A stretch of 54,457 nt of DNA from a virus, in UHGV virus genome UHGV-0096558. One strand, given 5' to 3'. Under the pieces are notes generated by a model. That model had not been told where the DNA came from, ran no database searches, and saw nothing but the letters and a program-made list of their open reading frames with translations. This document shows positions 155 through 17,403 of the stretch, one piece after another (position 1 is the first letter of the stretch; the number at the start of each line of letters is the position of its first letter). A program made the translations under genes and the position numbers.

Positions 155-814
155 TTAATTCCAGTTGCAAGCGTTTTTTACTTTGTCGATGTGGTTATAA
201 AGACCATCAATGTTAAACACTGCTTTCTCAATGTCGCCAGCTTCCGGCACTACTTCAATGATAAATTGTTTTTCGTTAACCAGATTTTTAATCATTGGAA
301 TGGCTTTTTTGCCGTTCCATAATCCAAGAGCTTTATAGTTAGTTGACCGCCCCCATTCAGTGGCTACAGCTTTGTGATCACCGATCCGGTAGTTAATATA
401 AGTAGTGTCCCCGGCGTCAGTTACACGGTGTGACCATGCTACGAACATTTTTGTTTTATTACCCTGGCAAGCAATTGTTAATACCGGTTTATTCTTATCC
501 TGTGCCTTCAGTGCCGGGAAGGCATCAAGACTTCCGCTGAAATGATCTGCTTTCACAAAAAGGAACACGTTTTTTGTGTCCTGCATATCATCTTTTCTTT
601 CGACCACAAGCCACTGTTTACCAGCTTTTTCTTTTGCTAACTGTGCCTCATATGCGGCTTGTTTTGCTTGTTGTTCCGCAAGCCATTTAGCATTTTTCTC
701 AGCCAATGCTTGTTGTTCTTGAGTGGTCACTATAGGCGCTTTTTCATTATCCTCATTGCAACCAACCAGACCCAATACCGCCGCAATCATTGCCACTTTT
801 GCTAACCGTTTCAT
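155..814 (-). CDS. lipoprotein, 219 aa (signal peptide with lipobox LVGC, coiled-coil segment, C-terminal globular domain); cargo gene
   Basis: ORF track; N-terminus MKRLAKVAMIAAVLGLVGC; RBS GGGGTGGG upstream of ATG at 814. Confidence 0.65.
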   Translation of the reverse strand: MKRLAKVAMIAAVLGLVGCNEDNEKAPIVTTQEQQALAEKNAKWLAEQQAKQAAYEAQLAKEKAGKQWLVVERKDDMQDTKNVFLFVKADHFSGSLDAFPALKAQDKNKPVLTIACQGNKTKMFVAWSHRVTDAGDTTYINYRIGDHKAVATEWGRSTNYKALGLWNGKKAIPMIKNLVNEKQFIIEVVPEAGDIEKAVFNIDGLYNHIDKVKNACNWN

Positions 815-1074: not shown

Positions 1075-3417
1075 ATGGCTACCAGTGTAGGTACAATTTA
1101 TTACGAAGTTGACGCGAAAACTGGTCAACTTCTCGTTGCACAACGACAGGCAGACCAGGCCTTTGACCGTATAGAGCGCGGCGCAAAACAGGCTGACCGC
1201 CAGGTAAACACCCTGAAAACATCCATCAAGGCACTGACCAGGGTTATCCATTTGCTAATTGCTGCCGAGGCTGTGCGCCAATTTATGGATATGGCGGAGC
1301 AAGCAAAAATGCTTCGCGTAAAAATCAAAATGCTTACGGGCGATGCGGAGTCCGCCGGACGGGTTTTCGACGGCCTGAAAGCAATATCCAGGGAAACGGG
1401 GCAAAGCCTGAAGGATACTGGCGAACTATGGCAAGGCCTGGCTATCTCACTGAAGAACACGTCCGCTACGGAAGGGCAATTGCTTAACCTGGTTGGTACG
1501 ATTCAGAAAATGGGGGCGTTGGGCGGTGCGTCAGCGGAGCAGATGTCAAACTCAATGCGTCAATTCCGTCAGTCTATCGACGGAGGCGTGCTTCGTGCTG
1601 AAGAATTCAATAGCCTGTTAGAGAACACCCCGACCATCGTACAGACAATGGCCCGCCAGATGGGGTTATCTATGGGCCAATTCCGCGCAGAAATGCTGGA
1701 AGGCAAGATCACGGCTGAAAGGATGGTTAACGCAATCCAGGCGGCTACGCAGGAAACAAACGAGAAGTTTGCGCAGTTGCCGCGCACATCCGGCATGGCC
1801 CTGAATGAGCTTAAAGTCGAGGTTATGGGGCTTGTTGAGCAGTTGGATGATCTTTTCGGTGTATCCGATACGGTTGTCGCTGGTATCGATCTTGTCACGA
1901 AAGGTGTTAAGGCTTTAGGTGAAGGCGCTGATTTCGCTAAAACCTGCTTTAACACACTGAAGACGGCTGGTAGCGAATTTATTGATATATTTGAAGATGT
2001 CGGAATCAAGGCTGGCGAGGTAGCGGAGAAGATCATCGCAATGGTCACGCCAATCAAAGCACTAATGGACGCCTATAAATGGATGAAGGAGGTTGTAGGG
2101 GAACAAACAGACGAATATAACAGCAACTACGAGAAGAAATACGGTAAGACCGTTGGTAAGGTCATGCAATTACAGGATGATCTGACCGCAGCAATCCAGG
2201 CTACAGAGGAAGCAAGGAAAAATGAACAGAATGCCGCCAATGACGGAGCGATTACCGGATTCGACAAGCCAGTAGACAAACCTAAAAAACAGAAAAAAGA
2301 GAAGAAATCAGAAGCTGATCGGCTTGGTGATAAAGGTATAAGCGTTTCTGACCAGTACAACAAAGACGCCGCCGCTATGCGCAAAGCGTTAGAGAACGGC
2401 AAGGCCATTGATGCTGCATTCGCCCAGGGTAAAATCACCCTCCTTGAGTACCGCGCCGCGCAAAAAGGGATAGGCAAGGAACTGAAGGAAGAATTAGCGC
2501 AAATTCCGGTAGAGGAATTGCGTGATAAATGGGCGCAAATAGTAAGCCCGATGGATCAGCTTAAAGGCGAGGTTGACCCTATTCAGCAGGTCCAGAATGA
2601 ATGGGCAGTCCGTAAGCAAATGCTTATCGACCTGGGCGTTACGGAAGCGCAACAGAAACAGGAACTGTTAGCCTATGAGCAGCAGATCCGCGATCTAAAG
2701 TGGGAACAATGGCAGGCGCAAAGCGACACAAACAGTCTGATAGGTTCTTGTGTCAACGGCCTAAAAGGTGGCATGAGTAATGCGCTTGTTGGTCTGTTAA
2801 ACGGTACTCAATCGCTTAGCGATGTATTCGCAAACTTGGGTAGCAATATTCTTGGTTCAGTAGGGAATAAACTTGCGGAAATTGCTGGCGACTGGATAGC
2901 CGATCAGATCATGATGGAGACACAAAGCAAGGCAACGCAGGCAAGTACAACGGCTGGCGCGGTAGCGGCACAAGGCCAGATTGCAGCGGCGGCGGCCCCG
3001 GCAGCGGCGGCAACAGCGGCGTCAACTGGCGGCGCATGGGCGGCGGCTGGTTCGGCGGCACTTACTGCGATCATGTCGCTGGCGGCGTCAATTTTTGGCG
3101 GCGGGCGATTTAATGGTGGTAGCGTCATTGGTGGCAATATGTACCGCGTAGGGGAACACAACAGGCCGGAGCTATTCCAGACGTCTAACGGAAACCAATA
3201 TATGATTCCGGGCGAGAACGGCAGAGTTATCCCTGGTCGTGATATTGGCGGCGGTGGCGGTATCAGTATGCCTGTCAGTATCACCATTCAGACCACAAAC
3301 GGATTTAGCGACGAGGACAGCCGCAGACTTGAGCAAACAATGGAACGTGTAGCAATGAAAATGATAACAAGGGAATCACAAAGACCGGGCGGAATATTGC
3401 AGCCGCGCCGCAAATAA
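1075..3417 (+). CDS. tail tape measure protein, 780 aa
   Basis: Long helical protein with Ala/Gly-rich C-terminal region and a lambda H-like C-terminal motif; lies immediately upstream of M-L-K-I-J homologues. Confidence 0.75.
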   Translation: MATSVGTIYYEVDAKTGQLLVAQRQADQAFDRIERGAKQADRQVNTLKTSIKALTRVIHLLIAAEAVRQFMDMAEQAKMLRVKIKMLTGDAESAGRVFDGLKAISRETGQSLKDTGELWQGLAISLKNTSATEGQLLNLVGTIQKMGALGGASAEQMSNSMRQFRQSIDGGVLRAEEFNSLLENTPTIVQTMARQMGLSMGQFRAEMLEGKITAERMVNAIQAATQETNEKFAQLPRTSGMALNELKVEVMGLVEQLDDLFGVSDTVVAGIDLVTKGVKALGEGADFAKTCFNTLKTAGSEFIDIFEDVGIKAGEVAEKIIAMVTPIKALMDAYKWMKEVVGEQTDEYNSNYEKKYGKTVGKVMQLQDDLTAAIQATEEARKNEQNAANDGAITGFDKPVDKPKKQKKEKKSEADRLGDKGISVSDQYNKDAAAMRKALENGKAIDAAFAQGKITLLEYRAAQKGIGKELKEELAQIPVEELRDKWAQIVSPMDQLKGEVDPIQQVQNEWAVRKQMLIDLGVTEAQQKQELLAYEQQIRDLKWEQWQAQSDTNSLIGSCVNGLKGGMSNALVGLLNGTQSLSDVFANLGSNILGSVGNKLAEIAGDWIADQIMMETQSKATQASTTAGAVAAQGQIAAAAAPAAAATAASTGGAWAAAGSAALTAIMSLAASIFGGGRFNGGSVIGGNMYRVGEHNRPELFQTSNGNQYMIPGENGRVIPGRDIGGGGGISMPVSITIQTTNGFSDEDSRRLEQTMERVAMKMITRESQRPGGILQPRRK

Positions 3418-3420
3418 ACA

Positions 3421-3452
3421 AAAACCCCGGTACAATGCCGGGGTTATCTTTT
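3421..3452. terminator. bidirectional rho-independent terminator (stem CCCCGG / CCGGGG with flanking A- and T-runs)
   Basis: Hairpin at 3425-3443 between convergent genes (tape measure +, 58-aa ORF -). Confidence 0.6.
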
Positions 3453-3627
3453 AGTTATTCTCAAAACTTGTATATCCTCTTTCAATTTTCCCGCCTCTTA
3501 CACTTCTTGCAAATACTGCATCAGCATGTTTGAAAAATGGTTCAGTATATGTGTCTCCTTTACTATCCATCCATTTCACGATCCAGGCTATACGTTTTAC
3601 ATTGCTTTTATTTGCCGGGTTTTTCAT
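3451..3627 (-). CDS. hypothetical protein, 58 aa (MKNPANKSNVKRIAWIVKWMDSKGD...)
   Basis: Manual translation (below ORF-track size cut-off); GGAGG 9-13 nt upstream of ATG at 3627; stop adjacent to terminator. Confidence 0.5.
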   Translation of the reverse strand: MKNPANKSNVKRIAWIVKWMDSKGDTYTEPFFKHADAVFARSVRGGKIERGYTSFENN

Positions 3628-3746
3628 TTTATTTTCCTCCGCAAATTACAATCTTCCGTTTCTGGCTATATAGCTGCGAGAAAACATCACCAACCAAATA
3701 TTCCAGATCTCCCGCCAGGTGAATTTATCGTCCTCCATATCCCGCC

Positions 3747-4001
3747 TCACTTATGCGCCCCTTTAACCCCGCAGTGGCGGTTATATTCCAGATGATCGAT
3801 GATTAACCAGACTTTGAGATCTTCGCTAAACAGCCGCCAGTCAGGGTTAATATCGAATTTAAAACCGTAACCATCGCGTAACTTTTTGGGGCGCGCCTCT
3901 TTCTTCAAAAATGCTTTAAGCAGTTCCTTACCCTTCTTGATAATCCGGTCCTGTGCGTTTTTCTGTACTTTCAGGTTTTTGTCGATCGCTACCAGTTTCA
4001 T
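3747..4001 (-). CDS. hypothetical protein, 84 aa; cargo gene between tape measure and M
   Basis: ORF track; RBS GGGGGTGAG upstream of ATG at 4001. Confidence 0.6.
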   Translation of the reverse strand: MKLVAIDKNLKVQKNAQDRIIKKGKELLKAFLKKEARPKKLRDGYGFKFDINPDWRLFSEDLKVWLIIDHLEYNRHCGVKGAHK

Positions 4002-4020
4002 AGCTCACCCCCGATTATCC

Positions 4021-4176
4021 TTAATTAAGAGCCTTCAGGAAGAAACCACGGTATTCATCTTCTTTTGCATTCATCATGAATTGACCGTATTTGAATGCAT
4101 CGTCGAAACCCTTAACGATTGCTATTTCCACTTGTTCGAATGCGTTGTTTAGCATTACCACTACATAGCGTTTCAT
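4021..4176 (-). CDS. hypothetical protein, 51 aa (MKRYVVVMLNNAFEQVEIAIVKGFDD...)
   Basis: Internal start of ORF 4021..4227 with strong RBS AAGGAGG; 20 nt upstream of next gene in the same cassette. Confidence 0.5.
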   Translation of the reverse strand: MKRYVVVMLNNAFEQVEIAIVKGFDDAFKYGQFMMNAKEDEYRGFFLKALN

Positions 4177-4242
4177 TTTTGGGCCTCCTTCGTTGGTACT
4201 GCTTTTCTTCTTGCTTTCTATATACATCTTGATGCGTGCTAT

Positions 4243-4330
4243 GTGAAGCCATTTTGTAAACTAGCTATAATCATTGTGATGAAGATCTCATTTTTTGCGT
4301 AGAATCGCGTAAAAGTATATACAAAATGTA
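4243..4330. promoter_or_regulatory. divergent control region carrying GTGAAGCCATTTTGTA (4243-4258, identical 16-mer at 1017-1032) and TATACAAAATGTA (4318-4330), then RBS and M start
   Basis: Read directly. Confidence 0.4.
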
Positions 4331-4346
4331 AATTATAGGGGGATTT

Positions 4347-4700
4347 ATGCCTGAAGTGTTCCGATGGACACCACAAAGAAGCTACAGCGTAAACAGTGAG
4401 CCTAACGTGTCTGTCATTAAGCTGGGGGATGGGTGTGAACAGCGCCAGACAAAAGGGATTAACCCTTTACTTGATAGCTACAGCCTGGTTTTTAAAGGCA
4501 CAAGCGCCGGATGCGGTGACGCCGGAAACGTGGCGCTCCAGGTTGACGCATTTTTAAGGGCGCGTTGCGCGGTCGAGGCGTTTTACTGGACTCCATCAAC
4601 TGACGGGGTGCAAAGGCTTTTTGTATGCAGAAAGTGGAGCATGACGAAAGACGGCCCGGTATGCACGCTAAACGCAACTTTTGAGCAAGTTGTCAATTAA
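4347..4700 (+). CDS. M: minor tail protein M-like
   Basis: 117 aa ending ...ATFEQVVN, as recalled for lambda gpM; position upstream of L. Confidence 0.75.
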   Translation: MPEVFRWTPQRSYSVNSEPNVSVIKLGDGCEQRQTKGINPLLDSYSLVFKGTSAGCGDAGNVALQVDAFLRARCAVEAFYWTPSTDGVQRLFVCRKWSMTKDGPVCTLNATFEQVVN

Positions 4701-4713
4701 TGGAGGTGTCAAT

Positions 4714-4899
4714 ATGTATGCTATTTGTGTAGTGGACCGCACGGGCGCTTTTACATTGTTTGACGACTATGAAATTAAAGATCTTACTGTAAAGGCTGAC
4801 AATGGCGAGATCTGGTATCTTCATGATGTTGGTGACGGGTATGTCGGATGCAGATCGAGAGAGGGTAGGGAAGTGTTATTTTTGCTTGATGGCTTATAA
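4714..4899 (+). CDS. hypothetical protein, 61 aa; inserted between M and L
   Basis: ATG at 4714 with RBS GGAGGTG; ORF track 4681..4899. Confidence 0.5.
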   Translation: MYAICVVDRTGAFTLFDDYEIKDLTVKADNGEIWYLHDVGDGYVGCRSREGREVLFLLDGL

Positions 4900-4903
4900 A
4901 CAC

Positions 4904-4927
4904 GACCCCGCGCGAAGCGGGGTTTAT
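4904..4927. terminator. rho-independent terminator-like hairpin (CCCCGC / GCGGGG) followed by TTTAT
   Basis: Between convergent genes 4714..4899 (+) and 5000..5248 (-). Confidence 0.45.
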
Positions 4928-4999
4928 AGTGTCGATAGCAGAATACATAACAATCCAATGATGATAATAATCACTTCCAAAACGTAATTTTCGCACATC

Positions 5000-5248
5000 T
5001 CATAACGCCCCCTTCAAATATGTCAATCCCTTATCAGTGACGAATGAATGATTTACCTGGTTTTCATCCGTCATGATGATGAATAACTTTTCCTGTAGGT
5101 ATTTTGCTTTCGGGTACAGCGTTAAGCAGACCTGGTACAGTATCCCGCGTTCAATCAGTAAATCAATGAATTCATGTTCATGATAACCGACAAGGCGGGC
5201 GGCCTGCTTCAACGTGTACACATAATTACTGTGATTGCGCCGCGCCAT
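5000..5248 (-). CDS. hypothetical protein, 82 aa (possible helix-turn-helix region)
   Basis: ORF track; RBS AAGGCGG upstream; last gene of a 3-gene minus-strand cassette. Confidence 0.55.
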   Translation of the reverse strand: MARRNHSNYVYTLKQAARLVGYHEHEFIDLLIERGILYQVCLTLYPKAKYLQEKLFIIMTDENQVNHSFVTDKGLTYLKGAL

Positions 5249-5257
5249 ATTGCCGCC

Positions 5258-5611
5258 TTATTTATTGAACGCGCCAAGGTTGTCGATACAGAAATCTTTC
5301 GCCGCTTTTTCGTATTCGCGTTTTGCTTCAGGATCATCTGCCGGGAAACCGTGCGCGTGTATTTCCGGGCAAGACTGATCCATAGAATCCGCAAGGTTTT
5401 CTTTAAAGCAAGCGCCGTTATCAATATCGTATTTCATACATTCCACCTTATCCGGTATTTGCACTGGAGTAATTTTGAATTCTCTGGCGCGTCCGAAGAA
5501 TCGAACAAGTTTTTCTCCTTCCTCGACTGCCATTTCGTAACTGTCATGCAAGCCGTAACCTTCCCAATCATCACTACCAGCCATCCAGACATCAAGACGA
5601 TACTTTTGCAT
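5258..5611 (-). CDS. hypothetical protein, 117 aa
   Basis: In-frame internal ATG of ORF 5258..5689 with RBS GAGGG upstream; acidic protein. Confidence 0.5.
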   Translation of the reverse strand: MQKYRLDVWMAGSDDWEGYGLHDSYEMAVEEGEKLVRFFGRAREFKITPVQIPDKVECMKYDIDNGACFKENLADSMDQSCPEIHAHGFPADDPEAKREYEKAAKDFCIDNLGAFNK

Positions 5612-5615
5612 TTTG

Positions 5616-5780
5616 CTAACCCTCATATTTGACAGGTTTGATCTGGTATCCCAAAACGCGGTCATCCTCCGAAAGTTCAAGCGCATCAATCAGCGCTTCC
5701 CCCTCGTCGTCATACAGAGCGATAACCTTTTCCCTCCCGTCAGTCATGAACACCGTCAACTTCCATAGCTTTTCAGTCAT
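5616..5780 (-). CDS. hypothetical protein, 54 aa (MTEKLWKLTVFMTDGREKVIALYDDEGE...)
   Basis: Internal start of ORF 5616..5900 with GGAGG 6 nt upstream; first gene of cassette. Confidence 0.4.
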   Translation of the reverse strand: MTEKLWKLTVFMTDGREKVIALYDDEGEALIDALELSEDDRVLGYQIKPVKYEG

Positions 5781-5909
5781 CATGCACCTCCGCGCCATTT
5801 TGTTAACTATGCTTCCGTTTGAGTAAAATATACATATTGTAAAAACCGCGATCAATCCATTTTGGTATGATTTAGCGTGACGCAGATCACAAAATGACAA
5901 GGTGAGAAA

Positions 5910-6614
5910 ATGCGCAATATTCCGAGAGAGATGATTATTGATTCCGTCGATGCCGGAGTCGGCGCGGTCATCGACTTATTTGAACTGGACCTGACCCCAC
6001 TTGGCGGCGAGGTTGTCCGCTTCCATTCCGGCGCTAATGGCTATTACGGGAATGTTATCTGGAAGGGTATCGCTTACAACAGCTACCCGATCGAAGTTAG
6101 CGGCTTCGAAATGAAAAACGAGGGGGTATACGCGCGGCCTCAAATGGCAGTAGCCAACATCGGCGGCCTTATTACCGGAATGAATAACGACTTTAACGAC
6201 CTTCGCGGAATGAAAGTTACCCGCCGCCAGGTGGAGGTTAAATACCTGGACGCTGTTAACTTCCCTAACGGCAATCCAGATGCAGATCCTTCTATTGAGG
6301 CGGTATCTGTTTACGTTGTCGAGGCAATGAGTGAAGAAACGGCGGAGCAAGTACAGTACGAACTATCAACGCCAGTAGACGCAGACAAGGCTGTTATACC
6401 TGGGCGCACCATCCTTGCTGACGTTTGCCAGTGGCAATATCGCGGAGACGGTTGCGGATATAGCGGCGGCCCGGTAGCGACTGATAAAGATGCGCCGACC
6501 AGTGATCCAACATTGGATAAATGCAGCCACCGCCTCAGCGGTTGTCGCTTGCGCTTCCCGCGCCCGAATCCGTTACCAATTTCATGTTTCCCCGGATCAA
6601 GCAAGGTGGGCTAA
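5910..6614 (+). CDS. L: minor tail protein L
   Basis: Recognisable similarity to lambda gpL (EIDLT..GGE, ...RRKV..R.LDAVNF.NGN..ADP..., ...W.YRGD.CGYSG..., DKCS..LSGC). Confidence 0.9.
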   Translation: MRNIPREMIIDSVDAGVGAVIDLFELDLTPLGGEVVRFHSGANGYYGNVIWKGIAYNSYPIEVSGFEMKNEGVYARPQMAVANIGGLITGMNNDFNDLRGMKVTRRQVEVKYLDAVNFPNGNPDADPSIEAVSVYVVEAMSEETAEQVQYELSTPVDADKAVIPGRTILADVCQWQYRGDGCGYSGGPVATDKDAPTSDPTLDKCSHRLSGCRLRFPRPNPLPISCFPGSSKVG

Positions 6615-7835: not shown

Positions 7836-10800
7836 ATGGGCGGCGGTGGTGGTAAAGCAAAAACACCAGTTTTATTAAACGATAACTTGTATCATAAGCA
7901 GTTTTATCGCGTCCTGGATATCCTGTCAGAAGGGCCGATTTATGGCCCTGTCAATCAGGCGGCACCGTTAAACTGCGTAATGCTTAATGATACGCCTATA
8001 ACTGACACCGTGGGTAACGCAAGTATCCCCGGCGTTAGTATTGCGTGGCGTCCTGGTAGTCTCGACCAGTCTCCAATCAATGGATTTAACTCCATTGAAT
8101 CGACTGTAATGGTCAATGCACAGGTTAAGCACGATACGCCGATTATACGCACAGTATCAGACAGAAATGTCAATCGTGTACGTCTTAATATTGGCGTTGA
8201 TTCTCTGGTATCGAGCGACAACCAGGGGAACCAGTACGAAACATCCGTACATTTAGCTATAGATATTAAACCTTCATCATCATCGTCATGGACTATAGTT
8301 AAAGATGTAATTATCGGACCGGGTAAAATTAGCGGGGAATACCTTGAATCACACATCATTGATGCGCCGAGTGAGTACCCTTTCGATATTCGCGTTCGCA
8401 GAATTACGGCAGATAGCACCAGCGATCTACTTCAAAACGACACACGCTGGAATAGCTACAGCGAGATCATAGATGACAACCTGTCATATCCTCACACGGC
8501 GGTAGCTGGCTGTGTTATTGATCACGATCAGTATACTGATACACCGACCCGCGCTTATCATCTTCGCGGGCTGATTGTTGACGTGCCGGACAACTATAAC
8601 CCTGAAGCGCGCACGTATTCCGGTTTATGGCTTGGTGGATTTAAAAAGGCGTACACCAATAACCCTGCTTGGCTTTTCCGGTATTTGATTAAAAATGAAC
8701 GCTTTGGCCTTGCACGACAGGCTGGTTATATTGACGTTGATGACGGCGCTTTATACGTGCTTTCTCAATACTGCGACCAGTTGGTTGATGATGGCTACGG
8801 CGGCCTTGAGCCTCGCATGACGCTTAACGCTTACATCACAGAGCAAATGAGCGCCCGCGACTTACTTGATAATATAGCTGGCATGTTCCGTGGTATTGCG
8901 TTATGGGACGGGCAACGTCTTACAGTGATGATTGATGCGCCACAAGATCCGATTGCAACTATCACGAACGCAAATGTCGTAGATGGTGCATTCACCCGTT
9001 CGAGCCTTGCCCGCGCGGAGTGCTATAACGCCGTGATTGTATCCTGGACCGATCCGGGTAACGGTTGGGAACAGTCAAAAGAATACGTTTCTGACGATGA
9101 ACTAATCGCCCGCGACGGCTACAACGAAACCACACTGGAGGCGTTCGGGTGCACGTCTCGCGGACAGGCTTACCGCGCTGGTAAATGGCTAATCGAAACA
9201 GCAAAACGCGAGCCGTCGAAATTTACGTTTAAAATGGCCCGTGACGCCATTCACTTTACACCAGGTGATATCATTGAGATCCTCGACAATAACCGCGCGG
9301 GCGCTCGCTTAGGCGGTCGTATCGTGGCGAACAATGGCAAAGTGATAACGGTCGACAAGGTTGATTCTGAATATATCGCGGCTGGTGACACCATCAGCTT
9401 ACTTGATAGCGATGGTAAATTTAAAAAACACCAGATCACCGGAGTTAACGGAAACAATATTACCCTTGCTGCGGCCCCGGCATGGATTCGCAATGGCACT
9501 GTTTTTGCTGTATCGACTGAAGCAGCAAAACCCGTTTTATGTAGGATCACCAGCGTAGCAGAAACAGAAAATAACAGCGTATACACTATCGAAGCCGCAC
9601 AGCACGACCCTAACAAACAGGCCGTAGTTGATGAAGGCGCAGTCTTCGAAATCAACAACGACACGCTGAATCATTTCCGTGTGCCTAACATTGAAAACCT
9701 CAAGGTAATGAATGTTGGTTCCGAAACCGTTCAGTGCTCCGCGTCGTGGATGACGCAGACCACAACTCACCGTCTGACCTTTGAATTACGTGTTTATAAC
9801 GAAGACAGCAAAGTTGTCGCCAGTTATGAGACGACAGAATTCCGGTATGATTTTAATGGCCTGAATTGCGGTCAATACTCTTTAGGCGTTCGCGCCCGCA
9901 ATGATACCGGTATGAAAGGCGCGGAATCTATCGTTGATCTCGTTATTGGTGCACCTTCAAAACCAATTGGTGTTAACTGGATACCAGGCGTATTTCAGGC
10001 TACTGTGTACCCAATCAGCAAAACAACTCTGACCAGCGATACAAGCTATGAATTCTATTTTGCTGGCGAAACACAAATCACTAATCCGGCATTAGTCACC
10101 ACTAATGCACAATATACCGGACGTGGTTATCAGTGGACGTTCGGCGGAATGAACACGGGCCATACTTATTACGTTTATGTGCGCACGCGTAACGCTTTTG
10201 GTGTATCAGATTTCGTAGAGGCGTCAGGTAAACCAACAGAGGATTTCGATGAAATCAGCGATTACGTAACCAAAGACGTGATGAATTCTGACCAATTTAA
10301 AGGAATGGTTAGCGACATTAAAGATCTTGGCGACCGCACCGACCTTATCGAAAGCGCCACTGACGACCTTAAAACAGCCACTGATAATCTTACCAATATC
10401 ACAAACGGCCTAAGAACTGATACTGACGACCTTATTGCAGAAACAGGGTCAATAAAAGCTGACACAGATACGCTTAAAAAAGACACGGAAGATCTTTATA
10501 AAAAAGTTCAGGAAAACGCCGATGATATCGGACAGCATGAGGTAAGAATTGACTCATTAGAGGTATCAAGTGAAAAAACCGACAGCGAACTGGCGCAGGC
10601 AAAAGCAAGCCTACAAAACGCATCGCTTGCCCTTATTAATAACTCGCTTGCACAGACTAACACCCGCGTAACTCTTACCGCTCAGTACAAGAAAGGTAAA
10701 ACAGAGACGAAAGCGGAAATTGACCGTATTGACAACGTTATCGCTGAAGAGAAAAAAGCGACTGCGGAATCACTGGAAACCATCACGGCAGAGATGAACA

Positions 10801-12275
10801 CGATGGATACCAACCTGAAAGGTCAGATTTCCAATGTTCAGCGTGCAGTAGCTGACGAGGCGAGCGCCCGCGCTGAAGCTATTAGTGGTGTAAACGCATC
10901 GATCACCAACCTTGATAAGAAAACCGACGCCAACGTAAACCGCCTTGATCAAGCTATCGCTGACGAAACCAGCGCCCGGACTCAGGCCGTCAGTGACGTG
11001 AACGCAAGCATCACCACGCTGGACAAGAAAACTGATGCCAGTGTGAAACGACTTGATCAAGCAATCGCAGATGAAACAAGCGCCCGGACTCAGGCCGTCA
11101 GTGACGTGAATGCAAGCATCAGCACGCTTGATAACAAGGTGACAAGCAATGTGACCCGTATCGACAAAGCTATTGCAGATGAGACAAAGGCACGCACAGA
11201 CGCAATAAGCAGCCTTAACTCATCGCTTACCAGTACGATTAATTCGAAAGTATCTGAAGTATCAACAGCACTTTCTACGCATGAAACATCAAGCGCGGAA
11301 AAATTCAGCCAGATCTCTGCATCTTTCGAAGCGGTAAACTCAAGTATCACAGAATGGTCGCAGACCATGACAACGGCGGACGAGGCATTATCAACCAAAA
11401 TTGATCAGTTAACAGTAACCGTTAACGGGAACACAACGGCGATCGAGACAACATCGAAAGCGTTAACCGACTTCAAAGGTAACGTTGATGCGTCATATTC
11501 AATTAAGATTGCCACCGACAACAACGGCAGAAAATACGCAACAGGTATGTCGCTTGGCCTTACTGGTAGCGGTACTGACGTTCAATCGCAGTGTATTTTC
11601 CTTGTTGACCGCTTCGTGTTAATGACTGCCGCCAACGGCACATACCAGACGCCTTTCTATGTCACTAACGGCGCAATGTATGTGCGCGAAGCGTTTATTA
11701 AAGACGCATCGATCACGACTGCAAAAATAGCACAGCAGATTCAATCAACCAACTTTGCTTCCGGTTCCGCTGGGTGGATGATTAACAAAAACGGCAGCGC
11801 GCAATTTAATAACGTAACTGTAAGGGGGACCGTTTACGCAACATCCGGCGAGTTTTCTGGGACCGTTAAAGCTAAAGCATTTGAAGGTGGCATTAGTTCC
11901 GGTACGCAGGGAACAAGAAGTTCCAGCGGGACGATCACAATTAACGTAACCCCAGCAACCCCGAATAGTATGCTATTGCTTTTCGTTTCTGTATACACGG
12001 CTGGCGTGCGCACAGCAAGCGGCGACCATACCGTCACTCTCCATGCGGGAGGTCGTAGTTTTAACGTTCCTCCGTCTTATCTTGCAGGTAGCGGTGTAGC
12101 GTCAACTTACAGGTTCGATTCAACTATAATTATCCCGGTTACAGGGACCAATAAGAGGGCGGTTTCGATATACTTAAGCCAAGTGGGCCACGTATCATTA
12201 ATAAATACAGATATAAGACTTCTCGGCGCTGTATTACTAAACACCTCATTCTCATCAGGTACTTTTGATTTTTGA
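7836..12275 (+). CDS. J: host specificity protein J (central tail fibre / tip attachment), 1479 aa, with inserted coiled-coil repeat region
   Basis: N-terminal region similar to lambda gpJ over roughly 750 aa (e.g. DILSEGPIYGPV, NPAWLFRYL, EPRMTLNAYIT, GCTSRGQAYRAGKWLIE). Confidence 0.9.
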   Translation: MGGGGGKAKTPVLLNDNLYHKQFYRVLDILSEGPIYGPVNQAAPLNCVMLNDTPITDTVGNASIPGVSIAWRPGSLDQSPINGFNSIESTVMVNAQVKHDTPIIRTVSDRNVNRVRLNIGVDSLVSSDNQGNQYETSVHLAIDIKPSSSSSWTIVKDVIIGPGKISGEYLESHIIDAPSEYPFDIRVRRITADSTSDLLQNDTRWNSYSEIIDDNLSYPHTAVAGCVIDHDQYTDTPTRAYHLRGLIVDVPDNYNPEARTYSGLWLGGFKKAYTNNPAWLFRYLIKNERFGLARQAGYIDVDDGALYVLSQYCDQLVDDGYGGLEPRMTLNAYITEQMSARDLLDNIAGMFRGIALWDGQRLTVMIDAPQDPIATITNANVVDGAFTRSSLARAECYNAVIVSWTDPGNGWEQSKEYVSDDELIARDGYNETTLEAFGCTSRGQAYRAGKWLIETAKREPSKFTFKMARDAIHFTPGDIIEILDNNRAGARLGGRIVANNGKVITVDKVDSEYIAAGDTISLLDSDGKFKKHQITGVNGNNITLAAAPAWIRNGTVFAVSTEAAKPVLCRITSVAETENNSVYTIEAAQHDPNKQAVVDEGAVFEINNDTLNHFRVPNIENLKVMNVGSETVQCSASWMTQTTTHRLTFELRVYNEDSKVVASYETTEFRYDFNGLNCGQYSLGVRARNDTGMKGAESIVDLVIGAPSKPIGVNWIPGVFQATVYPISKTTLTSDTSYEFYFAGETQITNPALVTTNAQYTGRGYQWTFGGMNTGHTYYVYVRTRNAFGVSDFVEASGKPTEDFDEISDYVTKDVMNSDQFKGMVSDIKDLGDRTDLIESATDDLKTATDNLTNITNGLRTDTDDLIAETGSIKADTDTLKKDTEDLYKKVQENADDIGQHEVRIDSLEVSSEKTDSELAQAKASLQNASLALINNSLAQTNTRVTLTAQYKKGKTETKAEIDRIDNVIAEEKKATAESLETITAEMNTMDTNLKGQISNVQRAVADEASARAEAISGVNASITNLDKKTDANVNRLDQAIADETSARTQAVSDVNASITTLDKKTDASVKRLDQAIADETSARTQAVSDVNASISTLDNKVTSNVTRIDKAIADETKARTDAISSLNSSLTSTINSKVSEVSTALSTHETSSAEKFSQISASFEAVNSSITEWSQTMTTADEALSTKIDQLTVTVNGNTTAIETTSKALTDFKGNVDASYSIKIATDNNGRKYATGMSLGLTGSGTDVQSQCIFLVDRFVLMTAANGTYQTPFYVTNGAMYVREAFIKDASITTAKIAQQIQSTNFASGSAGWMINKNGSAQFNNVTVRGTVYATSGEFSGTVKAKAFEGGISSGTQGTRSSSGTITINVTPATPNSMLLLFVSVYTAGVRTASGDHTVTLHAGGRSFNVPPSYLAGSGVASTYRFDSTIIIPVTGTNKRAVSIYLSQVGHVSLINTDIRLLGAVLLNTSFSSGTFDF
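10833..11242 (+). repeat. in-frame tandem repeats inside J: two near-identical 108-bp units (10941-11048, 11049-11156) flanked by degenerate copies; exact 32-mer at 10970-11001 and 11078-11109
   Basis: Read directly; encodes repeated motif RLDQAIADETSARTQAVSDVNASIT.LDKKTDA. Confidence 0.7.
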
Positions 12276-12280
12276 TACCA

Positions 12281-12305
12281 GCCCCGCTTCGTGCGGGGTT
12301 TTTTT
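12281..12305 (+). terminator. rho-independent terminator (GCCCCGC / GCGGGG then T7)
   Basis: Immediately after J stop. Confidence 0.7.
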
Positions 12306-12388
12306 ATACGCATTGTAAACTCAAGTTCGTTCTTGTAATGACAAAACGTTAAAATGGTAACGTTAATTAACGAAATGGAGTCATTGCG

Positions 12389-15300
12389 ATGATTTATACA
12401 ACAGGCACAATTGCAATTAGCGGCAATACCTTAACTGGTGTTGGCACTAATTTTACAGCGCCGCTTTCCCTTATCCGTGTAGGCTGTACACTGATCGCCG
12501 TGGGAAACCCGGTGCAAATTTTCTCAATCACAGAGATTAAAAGCGCTACAGAGCTTTCCGTTTACCCTGCCGCAAATCCCGCAATCCCTGCCGGGACAGA
12601 ATTTAGCATCCTGCTTACAGACTCAATTTCCGTCGATGGTCTTGCTCAGGACGTAGCTGAAACACTGCGTTACTACCAGGGCAAGGAAACAGAGATCGCC
12701 GCAGCCGTCGAGTGGTGGAAAGATTTCGGCGGTGATGGTCAGATGGATCAGCTTCTTGCCAACATTCGCGAAGAAACAGCGAAATCAACCGCCAACGCTC
12801 AAAAAACAGAAGCTGACAAGAACACAACCGAAGGTTACAAGAATGCTGCGGCATCATCTGCAACAGCGGCAAAATCATCTCAGGATGCAGCAAAAGCCAG
12901 CGAAACATCAGCCAGCAACAGCAAAACAGCGGCGGCAACCAGCGAAACCAATGCGGCGAAATCAGCAGCCGATGCGCTTAATTATAGAAATCAAGCTCAA
13001 TCCATTGTTGGCAGCAACATTGGCTTAGGTGCATCGCCGCGTGATTGCCCTGACATTTCCGGCAATCCATCCGGTTATATTGGCTTTATGCGCATTATGG
13101 CTGGTGCGAAAGGTTTTCCATCAATCGCATCAGGTGAAAGCAGCCTCACAGGCTTTATTAGCGGAGTTGACGGAAGTCCGACATATGCAGGTATTTTCCA
13201 GGGCTGGGCCTCAAGATCGCTTTATACTTACCGTTGGAGTGAAGGTACAGGCCCGCAATGGACTCGACACGCAAGAAAAGACGAAGTAGATCGCATTTCT
13301 CAAATGAGTGGCGATCAGACGCGCATTTACGCTGGCAACGGTAAAACTTATTTAGAGGTTGGCAATGATCGTGCATGGGGTGTTTATAATAGCGAGACTG
13401 GTCAATGGAAACCGTTAGATCTTGCTCAAGGCGGTACGGCAGGACGTAACGCAGGACAAGCACGCACAAACCTTGAGGTTATGTATGAGAAAAAATCAGA
13501 TCTAAGTTCCACAGATATTAATACGCTTACTGGCGAGTATTCCGGTTTTTATTACCAGGGGTTAAACTCCAACGCTACGTCAGAGCGTGGCTATCCTGTA
13601 TCAAGTGCGGGCGCATTGCTTGTCATCAGAAACAATGCAAACGGTAACGCAGGATGCACGCAGCTTTATTTCCCTTACAATGCCACGACTGGCACATTTT
13701 ATATGCGCCAGTACATTATTATTTCCTCTACGACTGGCTGGGAGTGGACCGCATGGAAGAAATTTCAGTCTCTTGATTTTACTGATAGCCCGCAATTTAC
13801 AAACCTTAATCTTGTAAGATCTTCAGATGTAGCAACTACCGCAGGCGGTATTTTACAAAGCATCCTTAATGATGCATCAGGCGCACAAAGAGCGCGAGCG
13901 CGTTTTTATTCAGAATTCCGTGGCGATGGTAAATCATGGGCCACAATTCACCTACAGAATGGAGATAAAAACCAATACGCAGGATTAAGCGAAGACGGCG
14001 ACTTTACTTTAAATAGCGGTGATTTTATAGGTAGGCGTTTAAGATTAACAGCTAATTTTAATTATCCCGTAGAAATATCAAGCGCTCATCCTACCATCAG
14101 ATTCAACGAAACGGATCGGCCATCAAATACACCTTACTATAGCCTTATCTTTGATGGTGGTAACTGGCGTATTCAGAAAGACGGATATGACGGGACGAAA
14201 ACAAGCTATTCAATGAGCTATAACTATGCAAGGGATGAAATAGAAGTACCTAACCTGAAAGTCAATGCAATTGCAGTACCTACAAACCTTGAACAAACTA
14301 AAACAAATATGCAAATCCCGTTTGCAGGTATTGCGCATTGGGTTGATTACAACGCTCCTACTGGTGCTGAAGCTGGTAAATATTACCCTGTAATTGTCAG
14401 CCATCCTTCATACTATAACGGCGATTTCCTTGTTGAAGTTGCAATGAGAACTAAGTCAATATCTGGCAGTGAAGAGCCTAACTGTAACGCAATTCACTTA
14501 TGGTTGCGTGATGGTGGCTGGTCAGATATGGGTGCGGCTGTATTTGGTCATTATTTCTGTTACGCAAACAATGAAAACGCGATACTTTGCGTGCGCGGTA
14601 CTGATAAAGGTCAGTATCCACATAACGCAATCTATGTTCGCGGTGACGCTTTCCCTATTCGTCTTGCCGTCACGGTTGGCTGTACTGTAACAATACCTAC
14701 AGCAGACTGGAAACCTTCAACAGCGGGCGATAGCCCGACTTATAAATGGGGTATCACTAATTCCTCTGATGGTATTGATTTAGATACTTACGGCATTAGC
14801 AATAACTTACTTGATTTCACATCGAGTGCAACAGGGTTTTATTGCACTGATACATACCGCAATAAATATGGTGATTCTTATCAGGTTATACAATCAAACG
14901 GAACTATACAGCCAGCTAACGGAGTTGCAACATATTTAAATCAAGACTGGAACGCACAACAATCAGACGGAGTAAACAAGTTTAAACCGATTGCTGGTCA
15001 AACGAATACGCCGGAAAATAATGTAGTTTATGGCGGCTTTCATGTTGGCTTTAGCGGTAACTACGCTACTCAATTCGCCGGACGTAATTCAAAATTCTAC
15101 GCCAGAAGTTTTGAGGCCGGAGTAGATAAAGGCTGGTGTCAACTTGCTACGCTTAACGCATCTTCGCAAAGGTGGACTGGATACCAACAATTCAAATCGA
15201 CGGAGTTTTTCGCTGATACTTACACAAGAAAAGTAAGTTTAGCCGTCGCAAATTCAGCGGTAAGAAATGGCGAGCTTTATTTGTGGGGTGCAGAAAGCCG

Positions 15301-15856
15301 TCCGACTGTATTTGAGTACAAGATAAAAGATCCAGACACAAACGCGTCACTTTCATGGGTTTTTTACGCGCAGCAAAACACGGATGATTCTTGTCAATTT
15401 CAGGTTAACGGTGCTGTAAACTGCGTAACAGTAAACCAGTCATCAGACCGAGACTTGAAAGACAATATTCAGGTTATAGGTGATGCTACTGAAGCTATCC
15501 GTAAAATGAACGGGTACACCTACACGCTTAAGGAAAATGGCCTGCCTTACGCTGGCGTTATCGCTCAGGAGGTCATGGAGGCACTACCGGAAGCGGTAGG
15601 ATCGTTTACTCATTACGGTGAAGCATTGCAAGGCCCGACCATTGACGGCAACGAGCTACGCGAAGAAACGCGCTATCTTAATGTTGACTATGCGGCGGTG
15701 ACTGGTTTACTTGTCCAGGTGGCACGCGAAACAGATAACCGCGTCACCGAACTGGAAGAGGAAAACGTCAGCTTACGTGCTAACATTGCCGTCATGGATG
15801 AGCGGATCACAAAACTTGAAGCGCTTGTCAGGAAGTTAACCGGAAGCGAAGAATAA
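12389..15856 (+). CDS. tail fibre protein, 1155 aa, with C-terminal S74-type intramolecular chaperone (autoproteolytic) domain
   Basis: Ala/Ser/Thr-rich repeat region near N-terminus resembling side tail fibre proteins; C-terminal segment ...SSDRDLKDNIQVIGDATEAIRKMNGYTYTLKENG... plus terminal coiled coil typical of endosialidase-type chaperone domains. Confidence 0.8.
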   Translation: MIYTTGTIAISGNTLTGVGTNFTAPLSLIRVGCTLIAVGNPVQIFSITEIKSATELSVYPAANPAIPAGTEFSILLTDSISVDGLAQDVAETLRYYQGKETEIAAAVEWWKDFGGDGQMDQLLANIREETAKSTANAQKTEADKNTTEGYKNAAASSATAAKSSQDAAKASETSASNSKTAAATSETNAAKSAADALNYRNQAQSIVGSNIGLGASPRDCPDISGNPSGYIGFMRIMAGAKGFPSIASGESSLTGFISGVDGSPTYAGIFQGWASRSLYTYRWSEGTGPQWTRHARKDEVDRISQMSGDQTRIYAGNGKTYLEVGNDRAWGVYNSETGQWKPLDLAQGGTAGRNAGQARTNLEVMYEKKSDLSSTDINTLTGEYSGFYYQGLNSNATSERGYPVSSAGALLVIRNNANGNAGCTQLYFPYNATTGTFYMRQYIIISSTTGWEWTAWKKFQSLDFTDSPQFTNLNLVRSSDVATTAGGILQSILNDASGAQRARARFYSEFRGDGKSWATIHLQNGDKNQYAGLSEDGDFTLNSGDFIGRRLRLTANFNYPVEISSAHPTIRFNETDRPSNTPYYSLIFDGGNWRIQKDGYDGTKTSYSMSYNYARDEIEVPNLKVNAIAVPTNLEQTKTNMQIPFAGIAHWVDYNAPTGAEAGKYYPVIVSHPSYYNGDFLVEVAMRTKSISGSEEPNCNAIHLWLRDGGWSDMGAAVFGHYFCYANNENAILCVRGTDKGQYPHNAIYVRGDAFPIRLAVTVGCTVTIPTADWKPSTAGDSPTYKWGITNSSDGIDLDTYGISNNLLDFTSSATGFYCTDTYRNKYGDSYQVIQSNGTIQPANGVATYLNQDWNAQQSDGVNKFKPIAGQTNTPENNVVYGGFHVGFSGNYATQFAGRNSKFYARSFEAGVDKGWCQLATLNASSQRWTGYQQFKSTEFFADTYTRKVSLAVANSAVRNGELYLWGAESRPTVFEYKIKDPDTNASLSWVFYAQQNTDDSCQFQVNGAVNCVTVNQSSDRDLKDNIQVIGDATEAIRKMNGYTYTLKENGLPYAGVIAQEVMEALPEAVGSFTHYGEALQGPTIDGNELREETRYLNVDYAAVTGLLVQVARETDNRVTELEEENVSLRANIAVMDERITKLEALVRKLTGSEE

Positions 15857-15885: not shown

Positions 15886-15916
15886 GAAACGAGGCTAACG
15901 CCTCGTTTCTTTTTGC
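15886..15916 (+). terminator. rho-independent terminator (AAACGAGGC / GCCTCGTTT then T-run)
   Basis: After tail fibre gene. Confidence 0.65.
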
Positions 15917-16182
15917 GTACCATTGTGTGTACCATATTATCTTAAGGTTAAATGAGATATGAATAAAATAATGATTTATATATCGTTTTTGCCACTTTGC
16001 ATAATGTCTCTTTCTAATGCTACATACCGCGCACAAGCGTAAACATACGCAAGCAAAATCACCCCTAACACCATGAATTTAGTAGATTTACTTGTTTTCG
16101 CTGTAAACAAGCGCGCTTTTGCGTTATATTGCGTAAACCATGATTTGTGTACCAGGTTGTGCACCAAATAAGGGGGGCGATT

Positions 16183-17403
16183 ATGGCGTTATCTGACACT
16201 AAGTTAAGAAGCATCCACGGTAAAAGTTATGATGGTCCGGTCGAGATCCCGGATGGCGGCGGTCTGTCAGTAAGGGTAAGCCCGAAAGGCGTAATTACGT
16301 TTCAGTATCGCTACAGGTATGACGGGAAGCCTAAAAGAATGAAGCTAGGCAACTATGGCATAATGACGCTAAAGGAGGCCAGGCTAGCGGTAATTGAGTG
16401 CAAGGCGATATTAGCAGACGGCAAAGATCCAGGACTTGCTAAGAAGCAGCGCATTGACGAGGCGAGGGCGAGAGCAACCGTTAGCGATATCGTGAACAAC
16501 TATCTGAATAAACAGACGACCAGGGAAATTAAGGGATACAAAGAGATCAAGCAAAACTTACAAAAGCACATAATCAAGAGGTATGGCGATTTTATTGTGG
16601 ATGACATTAACGCTAGGGCGTGGGAGGCAATATTCTCAGAGATAACGAAAGCGGGCCATCCGGTACAGGCTGGCGCGATGTTGCGCCGCATGAAATCCAT
16701 TGTCGCTATGGCGCAAAGGAAAGGGATAGTAAAAGACAACGAGATCCGCTTGTTGCGAGTGGAAGACGTTGGCAAACCGCCGCGCAAGATCGACAGATAT
16801 TTATCGGGCGAGGAAGTAGGGGAATTCTGGCGTTTTACGGCTGGCGATTTTATGTCTAAGGCCAATATGACATTCTTCAGACTACTGCTATTAACAGGAT
16901 GCAGGACGGTAGAATTGAGGCTAGCAAAGCGTGAACATTTTGATCTCAATAACAGGGTATGGAATATCCCTGCGGAACTATCAAAAAACAAAAAGCGGTT
17001 TACGCGCGGCCTGTCAACGTTAAGCGTAGAGCTATTAAGCATGATGTTTGATTGCCACGGCTTCAACATAGTTTTCCCTGCGGTATTGTCGCTGGATGGT
17101 AAACCAATGGATAAAGCTGTGTGCACAAGACTAGCGACAAGGCTTAGTAATGAAATTGGATTTAAGGCGGGTTTTACTGCGCATGATTTGCGCCGGACGT
17201 GCCGCACGCATTTAGCGGCATTAGGCGTGACCGCCCAGGTAGCCGAAAAAATGTTGGGCCATACCCTGGGCGGAGTATTAGGAGTTTATGACAGATATGA
17301 TTATGTAGAAGAACAGAAAGACGCTGCGGAATTATGGGCTAATTACGTTTTATCAGTATCAGAAAGCAAGCCTACTGACTTAAAGAACTGCATTACATCT
17401 TGA
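16183..17403 (+). CDS. int: tyrosine integrase, P4/CP4-57 type
   Basis: ATG at 16183 with RBS AAGGGGGG; N-terminal arm-binding region (GGGLSVRVSPKGVITFQYRYRYDGKPKRMKLG) and C-terminal HDLRRT...H..G...Y catalytic motifs. Confidence 0.9.
   Translation: MALSDTKLRSIHGKSYDGPVEIPDGGGLSVRVSPKGVITFQYRYRYDGKPKRMKLGNYGIMTLKEARLAVIECKAILADGKDPGLAKKQRIDEARARATVSDIVNNYLNKQTTREIKGYKEIKQNLQKHIIKRYGDFIVDDINARAWEAIFSEITKAGHPVQAGAMLRRMKSIVAMAQRKGIVKDNEIRLLRVEDVGKPPRKIDRYLSGEEVGEFWRFTAGDFMSKANMTFFRLLLLTGCRTVELRLAKREHFDLNNRVWNIPAELSKNKKRFTRGLSTLSVELLSMMFDCHGFNIVFPAVLSLDGKPMDKAVCTRLATRLSNEIGFKAGFTAHDLRRTCRTHLAALGVTAQVAEKMLGHTLGGVLGVYDRYDYVEEQKDAAELWANYVLSVSESKPTDLKNCITS

Follow-up and report, generated by a model that had tools for sequence, protein, structure and literature searches.

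The virus genome UHGV-0096558, a stretch of 54,457 nucleotides (the window), carries on its plus strand an open reading frame (ORF) of 1155 codons at 12389..15856, which starts with ATG and encodes a precursor protein of 125.8 kDa. The best overall explanation, which we consider highly probable, is that the product is the side (lateral) tail fibre, a homotrimer, of a temperate mEpimmI coliphage, with an S74-type intramolecular chaperone (IMC) at its C-terminus. Its trimerisation, self-cleavage, docking site on the tail and receptor class are predictions. Location and length agree exactly with the original prediction, which had been made from the letters of the window. Against PHROGs, the protein matches phrog_6578 'tail fiber protein' with an expectation value (E) of 1.9e-245, and about 20 more tail-fibre PHROGs match separate parts of it.

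The IMC (S74) domain occupies 15443..15853 on the plus strand (aa 1019-1155; 137 aa, 15.2 kDa). The original prediction had claimed an S74-family domain here, and a profile search matched aa 1019-1070 to Pfam Peptidase_S74 (PF13884, "chaperone of endosialidase") at E 3.1e-14 and 53.4 bits, with a cut-off of 22. The match ends 85 aa before the C-terminus of the fibre. The motif SSDRDLKDNIQVIG is found at aa 1018-1031. It includes the putative catalytic motif S1019-D-R-D-L-K1024 (15443..15460, plus strand), and the predicted scissile bond lies between S1018 and S1019. The spacing of S1019 and K1024 (S+5) is the same as that of S1264 and K1269 in T5 pb1. Of 51 diverse relatives (31-94% identity in aa 840-1155), 50 retain S1019, and the count is the same for D1020 and for K1024; G1056, Q1060, E1068 and E1114 are invariant in all 51. 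The near-complete conservation of Ser, Asp and Lys argues for selection on catalysis. R971, kept in 45 of 47 relatives, is a candidate counterpart of T5 R1250. In T5, R1250 is an arginine of the neighbouring chain; it is located in the preceding domain and senses correct folding. In T5 pb1, Lys1269 activates Ser1264, the chain is cut between T1263 and S1264, and a chaperone of 133 residues leaves (PMC4690869). By analogy, the fibre would cleave itself between S1018 and S1019. The predicted products are a precursor of 125.8 kDa (aa 1-1155), a mature fibre of 110.6 kDa (aa 1-1018) and a released IMC of 15.2 kDa (aa 1019-1155).

The structure-based analysis points in the same direction. The AlphaFold monomer model of aa 840-1155 has a predicted local distance difference test score (pLDDT) of 81. 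In its IMC part, two short helices (model residues 182-187 and 194-198), two short strands (204-207 and 214-217), a helix (220-226), a long beta-hairpin (231-260) and a 51-residue helix (262-312) follow one another. Such a layout is shared by the T5 and K1F chaperones (PMC4690869). When this model was compared with PDB by Foldseek, the top six matches were chains of 3GW6, 'Intramolecular Chaperone', with probabilities of 0.99-1.00, E of 3e-4 to 1e-3 and sequence identities of 10-13%. The last helix (15689..15841, plus strand; aa 1101-1151) is a heptad helix, predicted to form a trimeric coiled coil; I, L, M or V occupies 67% of its a/d positions against a background of 33%. The register of the Ser-Lys dyad, the 3GW6 fold match and the heptad pattern together bear out the proposed likeness to the T5 and K1F chaperones and the proposed terminal coiled coil. 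Sequence searches reach the IMC-bearing proteins S16 gp37 (6F45), MYRF (7DC3), DT57C LtfA and the GA-1 neck appendage protein. With the full-length protein as query, phmmer did not reach T5 pb1 and endoNF among the PDB sequences; only profile and fold searches did.

A different fate of the S74 domain has to be considered, namely that it is never released and either forms the distal fibre end in the virion or is only a trimerisation tag. Cleavage is predicted here from the sequence, and the uncleaved form of the T5 fibre is stable (PMC4690869). This alternative is, however, quite unlikely. The Ser nucleophile, the Lys general base and the adjacent Asp are the very residues kept in 50 of the 51 relatives, and the T5 chaperone, if retained, masks receptor binding; only the processed T5 fibre competes for the receptor (PMC4690869).

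The original prediction had also proposed that the IMC replaces the separate chaperone Tfa of lambda-type side fibres, and the searches fit this proposal. In lambda, stf is followed by tfa. The tblastn search with lambda Tfa against the whole window gave a best E of 2, and Caudo_TAP (Pfam) is absent from the 10 neighbouring and tail-region ORFs. In the 91% identical Escherichia phage MagusPhagus, the annotation of positions 1-50000, which covers 107 of its 122 features and leaves the last 4.4 kb outside, lists no gene for tail fibre assembly. An S74 end is found in all three mEpimmI relatives checked, MagusPhagus, mEp554 and mEp021, at each of the three fibre lengths seen among them (449, 841 and 1160 aa). 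In the Stf proteins of mEp460 (1336-4944) and PhiR70_1 (2464-4956), an N-terminus of the lambda type (PF08400) is joined to an S74 IMC. Their stf DNA is 82-87% identical to the IMC-coding part of the window, and no tfa is found downstream of the S74-type stf in either phage. The comparison of mEp460 and PhiR70_1 with lambda supports the view that the built-in IMC stands in for Tfa. With the chaperone built in, no gene of the Tfa type is needed. Since the IMC cassette is common to these two phages and the window, it circulates between lambdoid and mEpimmI phages.

It is conceivable that a separate chaperone or partner is encoded elsewhere and has escaped recognition, or that a second fibre protein exists as in the branched DT57C LtfA/LtfB. 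Many ORFs of the window have no assigned function, the fibre is partly homologous to T5-like long tail fibres (LTFs), some of which are branched (PMC10713586), and the hypervariable patch in the first central domain, described below, could be a docking site. We give this alternative very little weight: no second fibre-like or Tfa-like gene adjoins the fibre gene, whose flanks are J on one side and the terminator, attP and integrase on the other, and the single-gene layout is seen in the three relatives with fibres of 449-1160 aa.

The N-terminal virion-anchor domain (12389..12688, plus strand; aa 1-100) is homologous to the anchors of Webervirus. By phmmer, aa 3-187 align to residues 4-173 of Depo32 (7VYV/7VZ3) and to RAD2 (7LZJ) at E 1e-29, and the profile search gives the same match to anchor and helical bundle at E 9e-56. 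The N-terminal stretch of Depo32 up to residue 185 is described as a conserved anchor domain and a helical bundle (Depo32 paper). Many cluster representatives match aa 1-99 alone, and the anchor is the most conserved region of the fibre among close homologues. It is followed by an Ala/Ser/Thr-rich heptad segment, predicted to be a trimeric helical shaft (12689..13000, plus strand; aa 101-204). In aa 151-200, 33 of the 50 residues are Ala, Ser or Thr. Ala recurs every 7 residues with Ser at the +3 position. The shaft aligns with the helical-bundle region of Depo32 and weakly (E 0.008) with aa 176-248 of lambda Stf.

The large centre of the protein had been left unassigned, with a glycan-degrading module as one suggestion. 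Structure prediction assigns it. In the AlphaFold model of aa 205-1018 (pLDDT 81.7), five beta-rich knob domains are separated by breaks at 464-469, 624-627, 832-843 and 930-934. These seams recur as module boundaries in the all-against-library HMMER search, in which 2361 cluster representatives were found at E ≤ 0.001, mostly sharing one or two modules. All five domains are on the plus strand. D1 (13001..13780; aa 205-464) has an R-pyocin-type knob in its C-terminal half (~aa 373-463); similarity to the R1/R2 pyocin fibre knob is seen in both sequence and fold, and the profile search places the knob at ~aa 373-463. D2 (13781..14269; aa 465-627), a beta-rich fibre domain, is delimited by the breaks at 464-469 and 624-627. 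D3 (14270..14902; aa 628-838; pLDDT ~75-96, with the break at 832-843) is the best-conserved central beta domain, with a mean identity of 0.95 among close homologues, and its boundaries recur as 633-838 in the search of representatives. D4 (14903..15187; aa 839-933) is a beta-sandwich knob in both AlphaFold models. The C-terminal knobs of T4 gp34 map to aa 837-1017 in the profile search. D5 (15188..15442; aa 934-1018) is the distal tip or stalk and would form the C-terminus of the mature fibre. Its profile match is DT57C LtfA (8HQZ_d; E 5e-22), with the LtfA-like part at aa 939-1124, and the D5-region matches to LtfA and T4 gp34 map from aa 939 and 944 onward, respectively.

In the fold search of the centre, all high-probability matches were fibre or knob proteins, and enzymes reached only 0.1-0.3. 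The fold-match figures are 9.4 for the R2 pyocin fibre, 8.1 for the phi812 receptor-binding proteins, 7.7 for phage K gp144, 7.6 for the Pa193 fibre, 5.8 for the Mu fibre, 5.8 for the T5 pb1 tip and 5.7 for T4 gp34. No parallel beta-helix is present in the AlphaFold model of aa 205-1018, and no catalytic domain was detected in the Pfam and NCBIfam scans of the fibre. The glycan-degrading option is therefore unsupported, and the protein is better read as a fibre that binds glycans and is not an enzyme. That the protein is a tailspike-like depolymerase with a glycan-degrading centre, attached through an anchor of the kind seen in Klebsiella phage depolymerases, is highly improbable: the homology to depolymerases does not extend past the anchor and helical bundle, the model is split into five small beta domains and lacks a run of regular short strands, the confident fold matches are to fibres and knobs, and NCBI names the close homologues as knob-domain fibres. 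With five knob domains, no beta-helix and no catalytic domain, this candidate was dropped.

In a set of 109 close homologues of full length, conservation is highest in the anchor, in D3 and in the IMC. Variability peaks at aa 301-350 (13289..13438) in D1, where homologues are 35-51% identical to the query, while most of the rest is 85-100% identical. The distal tip is less variable than this patch. Since variability is highest in D1 rather than in the tip, and T5-like phages, some with branched fibres, have part of the body in common with this protein, the patch might bind a receptor laterally as a second site, or might serve for docking of another protein, which would make a bivalent or branched fibre of a temperate siphophage. 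This reading is improbable.

D5 is most likely the receptor-contacting end of the fibre, by analogy with T5 pb1, in which the position just before the IMC is taken by the receptor-binding domain (PMC4690869). The lateral fibres of T5-like phages and of small siphoviruses bind O-antigen reversibly as the primary receptor and are dispensable on rough K-12 (PMC8594841; PMC10713586; PMC4690869). Such fibres share only a conserved far N-terminus, which serves for attachment (PMC8594841; PMC10713586). In the mEpimmI group, J is the binder of the terminal receptor, and the use of LamB or OmpA as receptor is assigned to it (PMC11893012). As the porin role lies with J and lateral fibres bind glycans, we infer a role of the fibre in primary glycan recognition, and a glycan-binding primary-receptor binder is its most likely function by analogy. 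The 82% identity of aa 462-921 to a Tequintavirus LTF speaks for this role as well.

Under this explanation, the fibre would work as follows. The anchor (aa 1-100) would fix it at the tail tip, and aa 101-204 would form the helical shaft. Beyond the shaft, aa 205-1018 would build a chain of five knobs ending in the distal tip, followed by the IMC (aa 1019-1155). By analogy with K1F endoNF and T5 pb1, three copies of the IMC would trimerise first through the C-terminal coiled coil. Next, the beta-hairpins of the IMC would close on the nascent distal domain like a clamp, so that folding of the trimer is templated from the C-terminal end. Upon correct folding, Lys1024 would activate Ser1019, which would then cut between S1018 and S1019. 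The 15-kDa IMC would depart and leave a mature fibre of 110.6 kDa with its tip exposed. The mature fibre would bind a surface glycan, O-antigen or another sugar of lipopolysaccharide (LPS), reversibly and without degradation as the primary receptor. On rough K-12, where J alone finds the porin, it would be dispensable.

Several points weigh against this explanation. The anchor would dock on the tail tip, but no docking site for such an anchor is shown in the T1 and DT57C structure papers. The model of aa 840-1155 has low template modelling (TM) scores against solved structures (0.19-0.27), which we attribute to the use of monomer predictions for what is expected to be an intertwined trimer. 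D5 is short (~85 aa), unlike the T5 bullet domain, and the receptor site could be located elsewhere, for example in the variable patch of D1. The mEpimmI paper is silent on the fibre. A search for virion mass-spectrometry data on the mEp021 homologue, which would tell whether the C-terminus is missing, found no band sizes or peptides. Cleavage and trimerisation, finally, are predicted by comparison with T5 and K1F.

Judged by its sequence, the fibre is a mosaic of a Webervirus-type anchor, an Ala/Ser coiled coil, a block like that of PS3-1 and an IMC shared with lambdoid Stf. The block of 460 residues at aa 462-921, which includes D2, is 82% identical to the LTF of the Tequintavirus Salmonella phage PS3-1 (DNA ~79%); for aa 179-364 the identity is 65%. 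A related copy of D2 recurs in the same LTF. The PS3-1 locus concerned is 2868-6515. The tips of the two fibres differ, and their IMCs are just 24% identical. The identity of the block suggests that temperate and virulent phages of different hosts have swapped fibre modules fairly recently. In rV5-like, T1-like and 9g-like phages, the centre has weaker homologues.

The fibre resembles several characterized systems in part. With the LTFs of the T5 type (pb1/LtfA), it shares a homologous fibre body and an IMC, but the N-terminal region of LTFs that inserts into the LtfC collar is not matched; the PS3-1 alignment begins at aa 171-179, inside the low-complexity shaft. No collar gene of the LtfC type is seen adjoining the fibre gene, and the T5 bullet domain is much longer than, and dissimilar to, the tip described here. 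The T5-like carriers of such fibres, including PS3-1, are virulent phages of 110 kb, whereas the window is a temperate phage of 54 kb. K1F endoNF (3GW6), of the same Pfam family, is the best solved-structure match to the model of aa 840-1155, but its IMC serves a catalytic tailspike and the present IMC serves a fibre that is probably non-enzymatic. Lambda Stf with Tfa has the same role and the same place, 3' of J and near the attachment site, but its PF08400 N-terminus and its Tfa gene are both absent from the system described here. The Stf proteins of mEp460 and PhiR70_1, with a PF08400 anchor and an S74 IMC, bridge the two types. The Webervirus (KP36-like) depolymerases Depo32 and RAD2 DpK2 (7VYV, 7LZJ) are homologous to the fibre in the N-terminal anchor and the helical bundle; beyond these they consist of a beta-helix enzyme with a carbohydrate-binding module (CBM) and without S74, in contrast to the knob chain and IMC of this fibre. 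The fibres of MagusPhagus, mEp554 and mEp021 are encoded at the same locus and have the same kind of anchor and S74 end, but differ in the number of middle modules. The E. coli prophage fibres, 90-95% identical as proteins, agree with this fibre in locus, anchor and S74 end too.

The window is a temperate coliphage of the mEpimmI group in excised (or circular) gene order. The mEpimmI (mEp021-like) phages are non-lambdoid, Nus-dependent temperate coliphages of about 54 kb (PMC11893012), a size close to the 54,457 nt of the window. The fibre DNA is 90.9% identical to that of MagusPhagus across 90% of the gene, and partial matches to the gene are found in mEp554, mEp013, mEp044, mEp010, mEp515 and mEp021. 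J, lipoproteins, the repressor and integrases are the subjects of the mEpimmI paper, and the fibre is absent from its discussion (PMC11893012). In the records of that paper, the only one on the group, it is named "hypothetical protein" or "tail structural protein" (PMC11893012), and the mEp021 homologue is annotated as a virion structural protein.

The central tail fibre J (7836..12275, plus strand), with the Pfam domains Phage_Tail_Tip, FNIII-A_GpJ, Ig_J and Phage-tail_3, lies upstream of the fibre gene. J is 1479 aa long and contains a long coiled-coil-like insert at aa 834-1193. Tandem repeats of 108 nt are observed in the insert at 10902..11187 (2.1-2.2 copies, 79-85% matching), and variable-length repeats in the corresponding region of J have been mentioned (PMC11893012). 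The spacer between J and the fibre gene is 113 nt long (12276..12388). It contains a terminator-like hairpin 3' of J (12280..12300, plus strand; 8-bp stem, 6 GC pairs, T-run) and the GGAG ribosome-binding site of the fibre gene (12377..12380, plus strand; 9-12 nt 5' of the start). The sequence just 5' of the start codon is kept in MagusPhagus and mEp554. No sigma-70 promoter was found on the plus strand of the spacer. Late transcription of the fibre gene probably occurs by read-through from upstream under a Q-like antiterminator, which is annotated in MagusPhagus. In MagusPhagus and mEp554, the spacer has ~350 nt extra, with a minus-strand lipoprotein gene and a small ORF. The window is without this lipoprotein gene that its relatives carry. 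The spacer lipoprotein is the superinfection-exclusion protein Lpp, present in 83% of mEpimmI genomes (PMC11893012).

Downstream of the fibre gene, a terminator and then the integrase are found, in the order that had been predicted. The terminator-like hairpin 3' of the fibre gene (15886..15909, plus strand; 10-bp stem, 6 GC pairs, TTTTT tail) lies 30 nt from the stop codon, and a terminator is annotated at the equivalent position in mEp554. The tyrosine integrase (16183..17403, plus strand) has the domains Arm-DNA-bind_3 and Phage_integrase; its ORF opens with GTG at 16147, and ATG at 16183 is the likely start. In E. coli lysogens, the matches on the fibre side stop at 15922-15941, varying by lysogen, and the match on the integrase side begins at ~16007. 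With similarity broken between ~15941 and ~16007, the attP crossover must fall in the interval 15941..16007 (strand not assigned). The integrase DNA is 96-98.5% identical to integrases of LSU61-type prophages, which are of type III with the mppA site (PMC11893012). Elsewhere in the window, a 219-aa ORF on the minus strand (155..814) gave a match at E 5e-16 to VasI (Pfam), which belongs to type VI secretion systems. It lies upstream of a 780-aa ORF (1075..3417) in the tape-measure position by synteny with MagusPhagus. This VasI-like ORF looks like a moron, and a different small gene occupies the same spot in MagusPhagus.

A built-in S74 chaperone on a side fibre is already well known and ordinary, and near-identical prophages of E. 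coli already bear this annotation. The public collections include an identical protein (P0001) with PF13884 precomputed. E. coli prophage homologues that reach 90% identity or more carry the names "pyocin knob domain-containing S74 family peptidase" or "tail fiber domain-containing protein". As the fibre had no match in NCBIfam, these names stem from another NCBI resource. Among 5426 complete E. coli genomes, a near-full copy of the gene is found in 1 and pieces of it in 755.

Beyond the right annotation, the significance is slight: the mEpimmI group gains a properly described side tail fibre. The fibre also provides a clean comparative example: where fibres are otherwise alike, an S74 chaperone of their own and a separate Tfa can replace each other. 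The map of modules (anchor, shaft, five knobs and removable chaperone), whose recombination seams are common to T5-like, lambdoid and Webervirus phages, could guide the engineering of host range.

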